A DNA stretch of 64,000 bases from assembly GCA_038211855.1 (NCBI GenBank), contig JBBQVE010000008.1:957-64956 (forward strand), given 5' to 3'. Shown piece after piece: positions 3,392 to 51,735 of this stretch; the first letter of the stretch is position 1; each line of letters begins with the position of its first letter. Under the pieces are notes generated by a model, which had not been told where the DNA came from, searched no databases, and saw only the letters and a list, made by a program, of their open reading frames with translations. The translations under genes and the position numbers were made by a program. This stretch comes from Candidatus Saccharimonadales bacterium (GTDB taxonomy: Bacteria; Patescibacteriota; Saccharimonadia; Saccharimonadales; SZUA-47).

Positions 3392-4441
3392 TTGAAACCA
3401 ATGGGTATCCTAACAGGCGCGACTGACTTCTTCGGTCTCGACATCGGTACCACCGCAATACGAGTCGTAGAGCTTCATGGGGGTGGGAAGGTGCGAGGTT
3501 TGGCCCGATACGGGCAACTTGCTATTGACCCGAAAATTTCTCAGAGTGACTCAAAAGCTGACGAGCAGAAGATGGTTCAGGCCATCCGCCAAGTGATTTC
3601 GGACGCCAAGATTACGTCACGCAACGTCGCGGTCGGTGTGCCAAGTGGCCGTACCTTTACCGCAGTTATTGATATTGATCGTTTGGCACCGAACGAACTC
3701 GCTAAAACAATCAAATACCAAGCTGATTCGCTGATTCCAACACCGCTGGCCGAAAGCAAAATTGACTGGGCTTTGCTCGGTGATTCACCAAAAGAAGCCA
3801 CCAAAGTCGAAATCTTACTCTCGAGTATTACGAATGACTTTATCGAAAAGCGCCTCGACATGTTGGAGTCAATCGGTCTCAACGTGATTGCCTTTGAACC
3901 GGAAAGCCTGGCACTGACCCGCGCACTCATGTCGCCTGATGCTGGTGCACCGCAGATGATTCTGGATGTTGGTAGCCGTGCCACCGACCTCGTGATTGCC
4001 ATGGGCGGAGCACCACGTTTGACGCGTTCAATCCCAACCGGCAGTGAAGCCCTGATTAAGGCTGCCATGCAGAACCTTGGTATTGACGAGACACAGGCCA
4101 CGCAGTTCGTCTTCAAGTTCGGCCTCAGCAAAGACAAGCTGGAAGGCCAGATTTATAATGCTATCAATGGTACAGTCGAGGTGTTATTTGCCGAAATCGA
4201 AAAGTCCATCAAGTTCTTCCTGACTCGCTATAACAATGCGAAGCTCGAACGCATCATTGTGACCGGCGGTGCTTCGGCATTACCGGAGTTCCCACTGGTG
4301 ATTGCCAATAAGTTTGGCCTCAGTGTTGAAATCGGCAACGCATGGCGCAATATTGCTTTTCCGGCTGACCGTCAGAATGAACTATTAAGCCTCTCGAACC
4401 ACTTTGGTGTTGCGGCAGGGCTCGCGGAAAGGATCGAGTAG
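3392..4441 (+). CDS. pilM: Type IV pilus assembly protein PilM (actin-like ATPase fold)
   Basis: 349 aa. N-terminal FFGLDIGTTAIRVVEL phosphate-binding motif typical of PilM/FtsA-like proteins. Followed directly by pilN-like and pilO-like genes. The track start is TTG; ATG at 3401 is an alternative. Confidence 0.85.
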   Translation: MKPMGILTGATDFFGLDIGTTAIRVVELHGGGKVRGLARYGQLAIDPKISQSDSKADEQKMVQAIRQVISDAKITSRNVAVGVPSGRTFTAVIDIDRLAPNELAKTIKYQADSLIPTPLAESKIDWALLGDSPKEATKVEILLSSITNDFIEKRLDMLESIGLNVIAFEPESLALTRALMSPDAGAPQMILDVGSRATDLVIAMGGAPRLTRSIPTGSEALIKAAMQNLGIDETQATQFVFKFGLSKDKLEGQIYNAINGTVEVLFAEIEKSIKFFLTRYNNAKLERIIVTGGASALPEFPLVIANKFGLSVEIGNAWRNIAFPADRQNELLSLSNHFGVAAGLAERIE

Positions 4442-15924: not shown

Positions 15925-16038
15925 AAGCCTTATTGTACGACATGCAGACAGATTGTATACAAAATTATGTACTCGGCTCGCATCATCGCTCCCTATCTGT
16001 TAAAATAGGGGTAATTAAATAGGATTACACAAAAAATC

Positions 16039-28748: not shown

Positions 28749-28824
28749 GCCGCCTTAGCTCAGTTGGTAGAGCGTTTCATTCGTAACGAAGAGGTCCGGG
28801 GTTCGAATCCCCGAGGTGGCTCCA
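28749..28824 (+). tRNA. tRNA-Thr (anticodon CGT)
   Basis: Acceptor GCCGCCT/AGGTGGC, anticodon loop TTCGTAA, T-arm CGGGG-TTCGAAT-CCCCG, discriminator T, encoded CCA. Confidence 0.9.
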
Positions 28825-38295: not shown

Positions 38296-38484
38296 AGGTA
38301 ACAGGGATGAAGTATAGCTGATTCAGGGGTGATTTTCAAGATAGCTTGAATATATACCGCATATGATATAAAAAACCAAGCGCTAGCAGGATAATCATAG
38401 TGGAAAAGTGGCTGTGTAAATGTGTACAAAATTACGTCAATTATCGACTAGCATTAAACCGCTAGCATGATGTATACTAAGCGA

Positions 38485-38555
38485 GGTTGGGTTTTGAAAG
38501 GTGTTTCACCTTTAGCCGGTCGTCCTTATTTGCGAGAAAGGATGACCGGCTTTTA
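38485..38555 (+). ncRNA. Candidate ~70-nt transcript: two hairpins ending in a terminator-like stem plus U-tract
   Basis: TATACT (38473..38478) lies upstream. 7-bp hairpin 38497..38513. 14-bp hairpin 38514..38551 followed by TTTT-ACG-TTT. No credible ORF. Confidence 0.25.
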
Positions 38556-38589
38556 CGTTTAGCCGGACGTGACAAAACAACAGAGGCGG

Positions 38590-38786
38590 TGTATCATATA
38601 ACAGAGTAAAGACGCGGCCTCACCACCCGTACCAGCTCCGCCACTACTGGTAAGCACAGGCGTAAAAAGGAACTTGCACGAGTTAAAGACTTTGGTGGAA
38701 CCGTCCGGATCCAAACATCCAGACCCAAGGCGCTTACGACTGATAATGTACGACACGTACGTTGCCAATCGTTAGCGCCTTTTTAT
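38590..38786 (+). promoter_or_regulatory. T-box riboswitch leader (Thr-type) controlling the NUDIX-thrS operon
   Basis: Antiterminator: helix A1 CUUUGG (38690..95) / CCAAGG (38725..30), 7-nt bulge UGGAACC (38696..38702), helix A2 GUCCGGA / UCCAGAC. The competing terminator 38727..38781 (AAGGCGCUUACG / CGUUAGCGCCUU) is followed by a U-tract to 38785. Conserved-looking AGAGUA lies at 38603. TATCAT -10 lies at 38592. Confidence 0.7.
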
Positions 38787-38809
38787 ATGTAAAGCCGCGG
38801 AGGCAAAAA

Positions 38810-39232
38810 ATGAGTGAATATGAAACCAATATGGTCGTCGTCGCTTTCTTAGTTCGAGGTGGTAAAATTTTCATTGCCAAACGCGCCAAGACCAAAATGT
38901 TCTTTCCTGATCGCTACGAACTTGTCGGTGGTCATGTTGATATGGGCGAGCAGCCCGAAGAAGCATTGCAGCGCGAACTCCGCGAAGAGATCAACCTCGA
39001 AGTTACAGTCGGCAATCCAGTTGGTGCTTTTACTTTTGAACAGAATGGCGAGTTCAAAATAGAAATAGCCTACTTCTGCTATCCAATAGACGGGACCGAG
39101 CCGACACTGAACCCTGACGATCACAGCGAGTCGCGCTGGATCGGCCAGGGCGAACTAGACAAATTCGAGAAGGAAGATGAAGAAACTGAGCTGTTACGAA
39201 AAGCATTCAAACTACTAGAAGGAGAAAAATAA
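38810..39232 (+). CDS. NUDIX hydrolase
   Basis: Track ORF from 38762. ATG 38810 is preferred (SD ggagg 8 nt upstream). Nudix box GGHVDMGEQPEEALQRELREEINL. Its stop overlaps the thrS ATG (taATG). Confidence 0.8.
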   Translation: MSEYETNMVVVAFLVRGGKIFIAKRAKTKMFFPDRYELVGGHVDMGEQPEEALQRELREEINLEVTVGNPVGAFTFEQNGEFKIEIAYFCYPIDGTEPTLNPDDHSESRWIGQGELDKFEKEDEETELLRKAFKLLEGEK

Positions 39233-41064
39233 TGAGCGATCAAGATAAACTTAAAGCCCAGCGTCACAGCCTCGCTCACATCATGGCGTATGCCGTGCAG
39301 ACACTCTGGCCAGAAGCCAAGTTTGGCGTCGGGCCAGTCGTCGAGAACGGCTTTTATTACGATATCGACCTCGGTGAGACTAAGATTTCCGAAGAAGACT
39401 TCAAAAAGATCGAAACAGCTATGCGCCAAATTATCAATAAAGACTATCCGTTTGAGCAGTTCAACCTGCCCGTAAAAGAAGCTTTGGATTGGGCCAAGAA
39501 GAACAAGCAGCCATATAAAGAAGAGCTGTTAAACGACCTGATGCGCGCCGGCACGACCAGCGCCAAAGATTTGGATGGCGCCGAACTTGGCTTGCCAAGC
39601 GGTGACAGCAAAGTCGAAGACGTGTCTTTTTATAAGTGTGGCGACTTTACCGACCTTTGTCGTGGTCCACACGCGCCATCAACTGGCAAGACGGGTGCCT
39701 TCAAGCTGATGCGCATCGCCGGCGCCTACTGGCGCGGCAAAGAGGGTAATCCGCAGATGCAGCGCCTGTATGGTGTCGCATTTGATACAAAAGAGCAGTT
39801 GGCTGCCCACCTCACTATGCTCGAAGAAGCCAAAAAGCGCGATCACCGGAAGCTAGGTGTAGAGCTCGACCTTTTTACATTCTCAGATTTAGTAGGCCCT
39901 GGGCTTCCGTTATTTACACCTCGTGGTACTACAATTCGCACCCAACTCGAAACTTTTTCGCAGGAGTTACAGCAAGCTGGCGGCTACGAACGCGTCTGGA
40001 TTCCTCACATTTCGAGAAGTGAACTGTACAAAGTCTCTGGTCACTACGACAAATACCCAGAACGATTCATGGTAAGTAGTATCGAAAGTGATGATGAGTT
40101 CATGATGAAGCCAATGAACTGCCCACATCACTCCCAGATCTACGCTAGCAAATCACGAAGTTACCGCGATTTGCCTATTCGTTATATGGAAAACACCACG
40201 ATTTATCGTGATGAGAAGCACGGTGAGCTGCACGGCTTAAGTCGCGTCCGCGCTATTTCCCAAGATGACTCACATGCTTTTGTACGCCCTGACCAGATCA
40301 AAGACGAACTTTCCAGCATTATGGGTATGGTTCGAGACATGTATGCGATTCTCGGTCTTGAATGGCACGCAGTACTCAGTTTGCGAGATGATTCCGACAA
40401 GTATCTTGGTGATGAGAAAATTTGGAAAACAGCCGAAAAAGCTTTACGCGAAGTATTGATCGAGCAGAACGTTGAGCATACCATCGGAGAAGGTGATGCA
40501 GCCTTTTACGGCCCTAAGATCGATATTATGGTCCGTGATGGTCTTGGCCGAGAATGGCAGTGTGCAACAGAGCAGCTCGATTTTGTCCAACCAGAACGAT
40601 TTGGCTTAGAGTATATCGATGAAAAAGGCAATAAACAACGACCGGTCATGGTGCATAAGGCTCTTTTGGGTAGCGTCGAGCGCTTCATGAGCGTCTACAT
40701 CGAGCATACTGCTGGTCGCTTCCCAGTCTGGGTAGCGCCAGAACAGATCCGAATTTCCAGCGTTAACCAAGAAAAAGCCACGCTTGATTTCGTGGCAAAA
40801 CTCCGCGAAGAAGCCATCAAACACGACCTTAGAGTCGTCGTTGATAATGGCAACGAATCAGTCGGCAAAAAGATTCGCGACGCCGAAAAAGCCAAGGTGC
40901 CGTACATGTTGGTGGTTGGCGAAAAAGAGATTGAATCAGGCGATGTGACGCCTCGTATCAGAGGTGATTTACAGGTCCAGGAGCCTCAAGCAATGCCTTA
41001 CGAGAACTTCTTTAAATCGGTCAGAAACGAGGCCAAAAGCCGTGTCAGCCGGAGCAGTTTGTAG
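39232..41064 (+). CDS. thrS: Threonyl-tRNA synthetase lacking the N-terminal TGS domain
   Basis: 610 aa. Starts directly at the editing-domain motif RHSLAHIMAYAVQTLWP...GPVVENGFYYD. Class II motifs present (FRDE-like YRDEKHGELHGLSRVR, GEGDAAFYGPKID). Confidence 0.95.
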   Translation: MSDQDKLKAQRHSLAHIMAYAVQTLWPEAKFGVGPVVENGFYYDIDLGETKISEEDFKKIETAMRQIINKDYPFEQFNLPVKEALDWAKKNKQPYKEELLNDLMRAGTTSAKDLDGAELGLPSGDSKVEDVSFYKCGDFTDLCRGPHAPSTGKTGAFKLMRIAGAYWRGKEGNPQMQRLYGVAFDTKEQLAAHLTMLEEAKKRDHRKLGVELDLFTFSDLVGPGLPLFTPRGTTIRTQLETFSQELQQAGGYERVWIPHISRSELYKVSGHYDKYPERFMVSSIESDDEFMMKPMNCPHHSQIYASKSRSYRDLPIRYMENTTIYRDEKHGELHGLSRVRAISQDDSHAFVRPDQIKDELSSIMGMVRDMYAILGLEWHAVLSLRDDSDKYLGDEKIWKTAEKALREVLIEQNVEHTIGEGDAAFYGPKIDIMVRDGLGREWQCATEQLDFVQPERFGLEYIDEKGNKQRPVMVHKALLGSVERFMSVYIEHTAGRFPVWVAPEQIRISSVNQEKATLDFVAKLREEAIKHDLRVVVDNGNESVGKKIRDAEKAKVPYMLVVGEKEIESGDVTPRIRGDLQVQEPQAMPYENFFKSVRNEAKSRVSRSSL

Positions 41065-41685
41065 GTGTCAGAAAAGCTAGGCTCGAAGAAGATAATCGCT
41101 GTTGATATAGATGATGTTTTATCTCGTTCATCAGAGGTGATTATTCAGTTTGGTAACGAACGGTTCAATATCAACCTCAGTCAAGAAGACTTGACCGAGG
41201 ATCTGTCAGAAATGTGGCAAATAAGCCGTGAAGAAGCTGAAGAGACTTGGGTTGAATATCTCGCGAACGGTGCCATGGAACGCTATGATGTTGTGCCAGA
41301 AGCAAGGGATGCGCTGCATAAACTCAGAGCAGATTACACGCTCATTGCTGTAACTTCGCGTCGCAAGGTGCTCATGGACATATCCCAAAAGTGGTTAGAC
41401 GCGAACTATCCAGGCTGCATAGATAAACTAGTGTGTGCACAGATCTATGGGGAGGGAAAGCAAGATGCTCATCTGTTAACGAAGGCTGAGGTCTTACAGG
41501 AACTTGGCGCAGAATTTCTGATTGATGATCAGCCGAAACATTGTATTGGAGCGGCCTCCGTTGGAGTAAAAGCTGTACTCTTTGGCGGTTATCCTTGGAA
41601 TAGAGACGTTGATATTCCAAAAAGCGTTGTGCGCTGCAATAACTGGCCGTCGGTCGTGGAATATTTTGATGGCCAACGCGGATAA
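41065..41685 (+). CDS. HAD-superfamily 5'(3')-deoxyribonucleotidase-like phosphatase
   Basis: 206 aa with a GTG start directly after the thrS stop. HAD motif I IAVDIDDVLS. Later ITSR and DDQP motifs. Confidence 0.6.
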   Translation: MSEKLGSKKIIAVDIDDVLSRSSEVIIQFGNERFNINLSQEDLTEDLSEMWQISREEAEETWVEYLANGAMERYDVVPEARDALHKLRADYTLIAVTSRRKVLMDISQKWLDANYPGCIDKLVCAQIYGEGKQDAHLLTKAEVLQELGAEFLIDDQPKHCIGAASVGVKAVLFGGYPWNRDVDIPKSVVRCNNWPSVVEYFDGQRG

Positions 41686-47928: not shown

Positions 47929-48295
47929 GTCTGCCACGTGGCTTATCGCGTGCCGCAAGGTACGAGGAAAGTCCGGGCCGCATAGGGGAAGACAGTTGCT
48001 AACGGCAACCGGGAGCAATCCTATGGAAAGTGCCACAGAAACGACACTGCCCACTGCTTCTGCAAAGAAGTAAGAGCGATGGTGAAAAGAGTGGGGTAAG
48101 AGCCCACATGTTGTGCAGGTGACTGCATGATACGGTAAACCCTGTCTGCTGCAAGGAGATATGTCAACAATAGGTCCCCGCCGTTGGCAGATCATAAGAT
48201 CCGCTCGATCCTCGGAGCAATCCGAGGGCTAGATAGATGATAAGCCGACCGGTGTAAAAGCCGGCTGACAAAACCCGGCTTATAGCGTGACAGAC
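47929..48295 (+). ncRNA. rnpB: RNase P RNA, bacterial type A
   Basis: GAGGAAAGTCCGGGC, ACAGAAACGAC, GGTAAGAGCCCAC and ACAAAACCCGGCTTAT universal blocks. P1 pairing gtctgccacg / cgtgacagac. Confidence 0.9.
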
Positions 48296-48297
48296 AC

Positions 48298-48326
48298 TAA
48301 AAAACCTCCTACAAAGGAGGTTTTTT
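48298..48326. terminator. Bidirectional terminator between rnpB and rplT
   Basis: A-run-aacctcct-acaa-aggaggtt-T6. Confidence 0.8.
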
Positions 48327-51419: not shown

Positions 51420-51735
51420 ATGAGTACTCCCTAAATTAGATTTGATTGTGTAGAACATACCGCCTTTTGCAGTAGGTGATCGCATCATTACACATGGACT
51501 TTGGCTACTGCAAGCACAAGCGTTTCAAGGAGTGAGAAAAATTACAGGGAAAGTAAAAGGCCCCAGCCTTTTTATTAGATGGAGCCCCTTACTTTTGTAG
51601 TTTTTTTGTCTTGTATTTTAGGTTTTTGCCTGACGCACCCGACCATTTGTTTGAATGGAACAACGGCTTGCGAGAAGCCGTTGTTACAGATGCGTTTTTA
51701 TTTTTGAGCACTTTTTTTATTCAAGTGCTATGCAT

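Follow-up and report, generated by a model that had tools for sequence, protein, structure and literature searches.

A short leader upstream of thrS in Saccharibacteria is a probable threonine T-box attenuator of minimal architecture

The threonyl-tRNA synthetase (ThrRS) gene thrS of a Candidatus Saccharimonadales bacterium lies behind a NUDIX hydrolase gene and a short RNA leader with a T-box bulge, and the locus raises the question of whether so small a leader can act as a T-box riboswitch. We analyzed a stretch of 64,000 nucleotides (nt) of contig JBBQVE010000008.1, here called the window, whose own positions serve as coordinates throughout; the ThrRS protein encoded in it assigns the window to the Saccharibacteria (TM7, Patescibacteria). 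The leader and its relatives directly show T-box sequence elements that are conserved and covary, two folds that exclude each other, and a tight link to thrS. We regard the leader as very probably a functional threonine (Thr) T-box transcription attenuator with a minimal architecture. Its promoter and elements, in 5' to 3' order, are the following.

38569 to 38597, plus strand: promoter-like site GTGACA, 17-nt spacer, TATCAT; sigma-70-like, setting the transcript start at about 38604
38605 to 38637, plus strand: ultrashort Stem I with a putative kink-turn (K-turn), from the covariance-model alignment
38618 to 38626, plus strand: Specifier loop CCUCACCAC, with Specifier ACC at 38622-38624 and then the purine A38625, from a loop alignment of relatives
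38639 to 38677, plus strand: putative H-type pseudoknot at the position of Stem IIA/B, from alignment and covariation
38678 to 38689, plus strand: purine-rich linker ACGAGUUAAAGA, family consensus AAGAGUAAAAG, from the short-subgroup alignment
38688 to 38731, plus strand: antiterminator, comprising helix A1, the T-box bulge and helix A2; minimum free energy fold of the segment alone, -11.1 kcal/mol
38727 to 38784, plus strand: intrinsic terminator, stem 38727-38734 / 38774-38781 plus an inner hairpin; free energy -29.4 kcal/mol

The switch occupies the 3' part of the leader. Helix A1 pairs CUUUGG (38690-38695) with CCAAGG (38725-38730) and includes one G.U pair, while an extra pair, G38688-C38731, stands next to it across a bulged A38689. 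The T-box bulge UGGAACC covers 38696-38702, and A2 joins GUCCGGA (38703-38709) to UCCAGAC (38718-38724) around an 8-nt loop (38710-38717). This arrangement had been proposed in a first-pass annotation of the locus, and both direct reading and folding bear it out. Nucleotides 38727-38731 are common to the 5' strand of the terminator and the 3' strand of A1, so that the two folds are mutually exclusive. The same annotation had placed the terminator at 38727-38781, sharing the A1 3' strand, with a U-tract running to 38785 and 24 nt remaining before the NUDIX ATG. The shared strand stands as described; the U-tract is 38780-38784, and the ATG follows 25 nt further on. A terminator with a U-tract begins within the A1 3' strand in 53 of 55 related leaders.

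To place the leader in its family, we compared the window with 80 Saccharibacteria thrS loci (labeled L001 onward), whose ThrRS proteins are 58-74% identical. In about 55 of these 80 loci, GGUGGAACC is found 80-450 nt upstream of thrS, between visibly covarying helices. Pairing was counted in two sets, a MAFFT alignment of the leaders of 29 relatives, from which the window was left out, and an alignment of 25 short-type leaders that includes the window and adds the crossing helix b; shuffled columns or slid partners served as controls. In the first set, the C-stem of the K-turn, Stem I, stem a, inner A1 and A2 are paired in 94.4% of cells, as opposed to 27-39% with slid partners, the covariation score is 0.45 versus at most 0.11 in the controls, and compensatory changes are seen in 15 of 18 pairs. 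All five of the five A2 pairs counted there show such changes, the bulge is invariant, and A1 and A2 covary. With helix b added, the second set is 83.9% paired versus 24-36% when slid. A covariance model of 134 positions, built from the leaders of the 29 relatives without the window, matches the window at 38604-38733 over all 134 positions with 61.5 bits (E about 1e-15, by a rough calibration), and the next best match in the 64 kilobases with filters off scores 9.5 bits. Of the 80 loci, 57 carry a model match upstream of thrS; conservation upstream of orthologous thrS genes, on which the first-pass annotation had staked its proposal, is thus strong.

The pattern GGTGGNACCR has five matches in the window versus 0.6 expected, and the other four copies were rejected as T-boxes: they lie in long sequence resembling open reading frames (ORFs), with Gly-Gly-Thr type codons, and have no leaders, no terminators and no model score.

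Eight relatives (L015, L023, L034, L041, L043, L060, L071 and L076) carry insertions of 60-110 nt in the A2 loop, and their model matches span 165-221 nt versus about 120-150; these insertions recall the lineage-specific 'stem Sa' insertions of staphylococcal glyS T-boxes (PMC9177973). The motif AUUGU(G/A)CGACA is present in the A2 loops of L026, L027, L065, L069, L074 and L075, and the same motif is seen in the inner loop of the window terminator (UGUACGACA, 38747-38755) and at window 15934-15942. A hairpin module, UUGAAUAY-NNUGCGAGA-RUAUUUAA, with a conserved UGCGAGA loop, sits within the terminators of about 20 T-box leaders, including those of L006, L009, L012, L016, L027, L036, L045, L047, L049, L059, L065, L069, L070 and L074. 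In the window, the module is also found at the tip of other terminator-like hairpins, at 38507-38547 and about 51655-51690, and its 8-mer alone is not enriched there (7 matches vs 5 expected).

The 5' end of the leader holds the decoding module. The C-stem of the K-turn is formed by AGU (38605-38607) and GCU (38635-38637), with a 3-nt bulge AAA (38608-38610), and the Stem I helix by GCGG (38614-38617) and CCGU (38627-38630), which amounts to 4 base pairs (bp) closed by a 9-nt terminal loop. Across relatives the C-stem is 96% paired and Stem I 97-98%, with compensatory changes present, and the Stem I hairpin (38614-38630 in the window) is conserved and covarying in more than 50 of them. The family consensus, AGC-NNU-GA...GA-GCU, is a textbook K-turn whose C-stem covaries. 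An unusually short Stem I had already been predicted from the position of a conserved-looking AGAGUA (38603-38608); the prediction holds, and AGAGUA is part of the 5' strand of the K-turn. The promoter-like site puts the 5' end of the RNA at the K-turn and therefore leaves no sequence for a distal Stem I domain. Likewise, in 49 of 55 leaders from relatives a -10-like TANNNT hexamer ends 2-12 nt, mostly 6-7, 5' of where the model begins, which leaves no room for a long Stem I in these either. The order of elements in the family is a -10 box, then AGC NNU GA N - GYGG - NNU(C/A)ACNA(A/C) - CCRC - N GA GCU, then YCGU...ACGUWA, the crossing helix, a purine-rich linker with or without a hairpin, the antiterminator and the terminator.

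The terminal loop of this hairpin displays a Thr codon throughout the family. In 54 leaders the Specifier triplet is ACC (44), ACG (5), ACU (4) or ACA (1), the A and C being invariant and the third base alone varying, in line with a four-codon family, and the base that follows is A in 53 and G in one. We also scanned metagenomes with the Stem I/K-turn pattern, leaving the Specifier triplet as NNN. The scan returned 25 contigs, with ACC in 21 and ACU in 4, and thrS lies directly downstream in 22 of the 25.

Between the decoding module and the switch lies the putative pseudoknot. Its stem a pairs CGCC (38639-38642) with GGCG (38659-38662), and the F-box-like GCGUAA (38660-38665) begins within the 3' strand of this stem. 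Stem b pairs GUAAG (38650-38654) with CUUGC (38673-38677) and links the large loop of stem a with sequence 3' of the F-box. In the family, stem a is 89-91% paired and all three of its three pairs show compensatory changes (CGU/ACG, CGC/GCG, CAU/AUG, GGC/GCC and CGG/CCG). Its 3' strand is followed by UWA, giving ACGUUA, ACGUAA or GCGAUA in the family and GCGUAA in the window. For stem b, the short subgroup gives about 71% pairing and covariation at 8 of 9 pairs; the duplex energy of this stem has a mean z of -1.2 relative to shuffles, and 18 of 54 leaders reach p<=0.05. Judged from the alignment, the crossing stems a and b have the topology of Stem IIA/B, with helices longer than those of the canonical 21-nt pseudoknot. 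Helix b contains a conserved AGA/GA internal loop, a possible analogue of the S-turn, the consensus of which was not recognised in the leaders. Stem a starts 1 nt after the K-turn with no independent hairpin between them, i.e., there is no separate Stem II.

From the pseudoknot to A1 the window has only ACGAGUUAAAGA and the short subgroup only AAGAGUAAAAG, with no Stem III in either, and about half of the family, the window among them, is built this way. The longer subgroup has RAGUG, a Stem III hairpin and AAG at the linker position. In sequence, the short consensus AAGAG-U-AAAAG looks like RRRNG-[Stem III]-AA minus the hairpin. Both the pseudoknot with its F-box-like element and the absence of Stem III had been missed by the first-pass annotation.

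The remaining contact to consider is that between the T-box bulge and the acceptor end of the tRNA. Opposite the discriminator, the bulge has A in 55 of 55 leaders from genome loci; in three of these the bulge reads UGGAACA. The tRNA to which the window bulge had originally been matched is as follows.

28749 to 28824, plus strand: tRNA-Thr(CGU), ending GGC-U-CCA, with discriminator U and encoded CCA; the anticodon CGU reads ACG

The match of the UGGA bulge to this U discriminator is confirmed, and all 26 of the 26 tRNA-Thr genes found in the window and the loci end U-CCA and are CGU isoacceptors. The cognate tRNA-Thr(GGU) was found neither in the window nor in 105 loci, only CGU isoacceptors being present. 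The CGU anticodon of the window tRNA reads neither ACC nor ACU, the triplet that the first-pass annotation had taken as the Specifier.

Based on these elements, we propose that a NUDIX-thrS(-NT5C) operon has 38604-38784 as its 5' leader and that this leader responds to tRNA-Thr; tRNA binding, charge sensing and read-through are what we infer. The RNA would begin at the K-turn that closes the 4-bp Stem I, and the loop would show ACC-A to the anticodon of tRNA-Thr(GGU). The pseudoknot with GCGUAA would replace Stem II and the IIA/B domain, and the purine linker would lead on to the antiterminator. By default, the stabler terminator (-29 vs -11 kcal/mol) would form and transcription would end 25 nt before NUDIX. 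The 3' UCCA of an uncharged tRNA-Thr would pair with U38696-G-G-A38699 and stabilize the antiterminator; with 38727-38731 sequestered in this way, RNA polymerase would read into NUDIX-thrS-NT5C, which, by analogy with characterized T-boxes, a charged tRNA could not bring about (PMC7583486). Control of NUDIX-thrS by a T-box-type leader through a terminator and an antiterminator, as originally suggested, is supported by the observations above.

A number of observations weigh against this proposal. Some concern the window copy itself, which is the lowest-scoring true match of the model (61.5 vs 65-115 bits elsewhere). Its K-turn reads AGU-AAA-GA...CA-GCU, in which G38611-A38612 face C38633-A38634, position 2n is C where the consensus has G, and there is one extra A. 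A2 contains one C-A mismatch. Helix b has only 5 bp in the window, including a G.U, with a duplex energy indistinguishable from that of shuffles, and it is the alignment register only that places this putative helix here. Since tRNA-Thr(GGU) is not in the window, the discriminator was taken from tRNA-Thr(CGU). Others concern the family. Three near-identical metagenome leaders (L084, L087 and L094) combine the bulge UGGGACC with the Specifier ACU, and the tRNA-Thr(CGU) that adjoins the L087 leader still has discriminator U; the bulge and the discriminator are therefore not strictly matched, and such leaders would have to rely on a G.U wobble. Because ACN covers a full box of four Thr codons, the finding of Thr codons only is automatic once AC is invariant. 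The leaders share ancestry, so that shuffle statistics overstate significance. The nearest thrS relatives, L001-L005, are without the T-box, which indicates that the element is dispensable in the clade.

Finally, the first-pass annotation had expected a match to the Rfam T-box model RF00230 and had named the lack of one as refuting its proposal. No match is found, either at the gathering threshold (GA) in the whole window or at E<=10 in 38296-38900. The model likewise finds no T-box match in 14 relatives. The best relative, L074, gives a partial alignment with 13.1 bits (GA 93) and an E value of 0.91, which covers exactly Stem IIA/F-box, AGUG-Stem III-AA and the T-box sequence; this alignment, although weak, supports homology of the 3' half. 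The silence of RF00230 is a failure of sensitivity of that model and not a refutation.

The peculiarities of the window copy could also be read as decay, with a T-box-derived leader now serving as a constitutive, leaky terminator that is unresponsive to tRNA. The low model score, the non-consensus K-turn and the A2 mismatch are consistent with such a relic, as are the loss of the leader from the nearest thrS relatives and the NUDIX gene, a foreign gene put in behind the leader. However, the changes seen are compensatory and not destructive (stem a is CGCC/GGCG versus CGU/ACG, Stem I is GCGG/CCGU and the C-stem is AGU/GCU), while the Specifier loop, the bulge and the overlap of A1 with the terminator are all intact. 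A K-turn with C at 2n, moreover, recurs in L028 and L058. We consider decay of this kind unlikely.

A very improbable alternative is the decoding module that was first proposed, in which Stem I is the hairpin UACCAG/CUGGUA (38630-38652) and ACU-A, towards the 3' end of an 11-nt loop, serves as the Specifier. This hairpin can form in the window, and ACU is indeed a Thr codon followed by A. Its columns, however, are 24% paired in the 25 aligned leaders, compared with 25.9% when shuffled and 32-45% when slid, which is background, and they show no covariation. The hairpin would also consume nucleotides of the Stem I 3' strand, the K-turn C-stem and stem b, whereas the conserved and covarying hairpin, with an invariant AC-N-A loop, is the one at 38614-38630; the conserved Specifier is ACC at 38622-38624. 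Least credible of all is a leader operated by a protein, ThrRS or another, that binds the conserved hairpin, with the T-box-like bulge incidental: E. coli thrS is autoregulated by ThrRS binding to its leader, and a protein cofactor is conceivable in an RNA with no Stem I elbow platform or recognisable Stem II S-turn, but the loop shows the codon ACC and not an anticodon mimic (GGU, CGU or UGU), and UGGAACC, the F-box-like element, the K-turn and the antiterminator/terminator switch are T-box hallmarks that are conserved together.

Downstream of the proposed attenuator, the window contains the following features.

38799 to 38803, plus strand: Shine-Dalgarno (SD) sequence GGAGG, 15 nt 3' of the U-tract and part of neither fold
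38810 to 39232, plus strand: NUDIX hydrolase gene, ATG at 38810, stop at 39230-39232 (Pfam PF00293, E 1e-17)
39232 to 41064, plus strand: thrS, without an N-terminal TGS domain (Pfam tRNA_SAD, tRNA-synt_2b and HGTP_anticodon)
41065 to 41685, plus strand: ORF for an NT5C-family 5'-nucleotidase, beginning right behind thrS and probably part of its operon

The lack of a TGS domain in ThrRS and the overlap of the NUDIX stop with the thrS start (TAATG, 39230-39234) agree with the first-pass annotation. A NUDIX gene between leader and thrS is found in none of the 80 related loci, and the NUDIX-thrS arrangement is unique to the window. In L033 a GNAT-like ORF (3472-4011) lies between the T-box and thrS, in the same place as the window NUDIX, and in L052, L056 and L058 the terminator is separated from thrS by 340-360 nt. 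Genes placed between a T-box and thrS, NUDIX in the window and the GNAT-like ORF in L033, are unusual T-box cargo; the leader puts the NUDIX hydrolase, not a usual T-box target, under apparent tRNA-Thr control.

About a quarter of the thrS loci have no T-box (L001-L005, L011, L018, L019, L021, L025, L029-L032, L040, L042, L051, L055, L057, L062 and L066). The promoter motif AACAGAGGTG-N-TATAAT is kept right before thrS in several of these, as seen in L004, L011, L032 and L062, and the nearest relatives L001-L005 retain the motif although they have no leader; a promoter kept without its leader suggests repeated clean loss of the leader. In a long subgroup (L006, L027, L028, L041, L043, L076, L074, L069 and L070), a perfect inverted repeat, GATGTGT...ACACATC, holds the -10-like TATAAT or TATACT in its loop, 30-45 nt 5' of the K-turn. 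The repeat could act as an operator on this promoter; alternatively, in these genomes the leader may begin further upstream. The repeat is preceded by AGGTGARGTTTTG, which is also the 5' motif of a small RNA (sRNA) seen in the window at 38437-38554.

The region 38437-38554, on the plus strand and just upstream of the T-box promoter, holds a small transcription unit of its own, which is conserved. ACTAGC boxes recur in it, its -10 element is TATACT (38473-38478), and its RNA, of about 75 nt, starts (A)GGYGARGUUUUG and folds into a small hairpin and then a strong terminator hairpin, the UGCGAGA loop of which is invariant. The unit is found at 18 or more related loci, with or without a T-box, and 11 of the 13 pairs of its terminator stem show compensatory changes. 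Rfam has no match for it, and we regard it as a candidate sRNA. The sequence GCAGGUGGAAUUCUGCC in L001, considered as a remnant of a T-box, was rejected as such; it belongs to a conserved small transcription unit distinct from the T-box. Elsewhere on the plus strand of the window are an RNase P RNA of bacterial class A (47930-48298, 215.7 bits), and the window has six tRNA genes, with CCA encoded in all those checked.

Comparison with known T-boxes shows where the leader is ordinary and where it departs. It shares with classical T-boxes a Specifier that matches the aminoacyl-tRNA synthetase and is followed by a purine, a putative K-turn below Stem I, an F-box in a IIA/B-type pseudoknot, a UGGNACC sequence between A1 and A2 with N matching the discriminator, and a mutually exclusive intrinsic terminator. 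Unlike the class I transcriptional T-boxes described by RF00230, the window leader lacks the distal part of Stem I, with its AG bulge and its distal-loop platform for the elbow, and has a Stem I of 4 bp and a 9-nt loop. The Specifier occupies a terminal loop instead of an internal one, no separate Stem II hairpin is present, and the subgroup to which the window belongs has no Stem III. The glyQS T-boxes also have no Stem II domain, retain a long Stem I with an elbow platform as well as Stem III, and have no IIA/B pseudoknot. The window leader has in common with these the absence of a Stem II hairpin and transcriptional control; it differs from them in their long Stem I, their Stem III, their lack of the pseudoknot and their GC-rich codon-anticodon pair.

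The decoding module resembles that of the translational (class II) ileS T-boxes described from the Actinobacteria M. tuberculosis and N. farcinica, in which a naturally truncated Stem I of about 30 nt has a K-turn and an apical Specifier loop (PMC7583486, PMC7778990, PMC10651847). Shared with these are the ultrashort Stem I, the Specifier in the apical loop, a downstream F-box pseudoknot and a preference for C at the third codon position. Stem II of class II is elongated and carries an S-turn, on which tRNA binding depends where Stem I is short (PMC7583486). The window leader, by contrast, has its pseudoknot directly after the K-turn and a decoding module of about 74 nt as opposed to 99 nt in N. 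farcinica. Its alternative helix is a GC-rich hairpin followed by UUUUU and not an SD sequestrator, the SD lying outside the switch, and it is found with Thr/thrS in Saccharibacteria and not with Ile/ileS in Actinobacteria. As far as the sequence goes, the decoding half resembles class II ileS and the output half is a class I terminator.

In the literature that we searched, no report links T-boxes with Saccharibacteria, Patescibacteria, the candidate phyla radiation (CPR) or TM7, with subscription literature outside the coverage and an earlier description therefore possible; nor was a native riboswitch reported for this CPR lineage in that literature. We hold it to be a real possibility, if somewhat short of probable, that these leaders represent an undescribed T-box class, an attenuator of about 130 nt that decodes tRNA-Thr while lacking the elbow platform, the S-turn hairpin of Stem II and, in roughly half its members, Stem III too, with an enlarged IIA/B-type pseudoknot or a protein partner taking over. 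In the current division, transcriptional T-boxes use a long Stem I to grip the tRNA elbow for fast co-transcriptional capture, and actinobacterial translational T-boxes offset a short Stem I with the S-turn of Stem II (PMC7583486, PMC7778990, PMC11297988). If true, the class would break the rule that ties a short Stem I to translational control, to Actinobacteria and to the need for a Stem II, and it would be the smallest natural tRNA-sensing transcriptional switch. A short Stem I combined with a terminator and no separate Stem II hairpin raises the question of how fast and specific capture of a tRNA is possible with so few contacts, and at about 130 nt the family would be a compact natural scaffold on which structural studies and engineering could build. 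It would also expose a blind spot of annotation based on RF00230, and hence of catalogues of the TBDB type. For the organisms themselves, the family would extend T-box regulation to the ultrasmall episymbiotic Patescibacteria, which import amino acids from their hosts.

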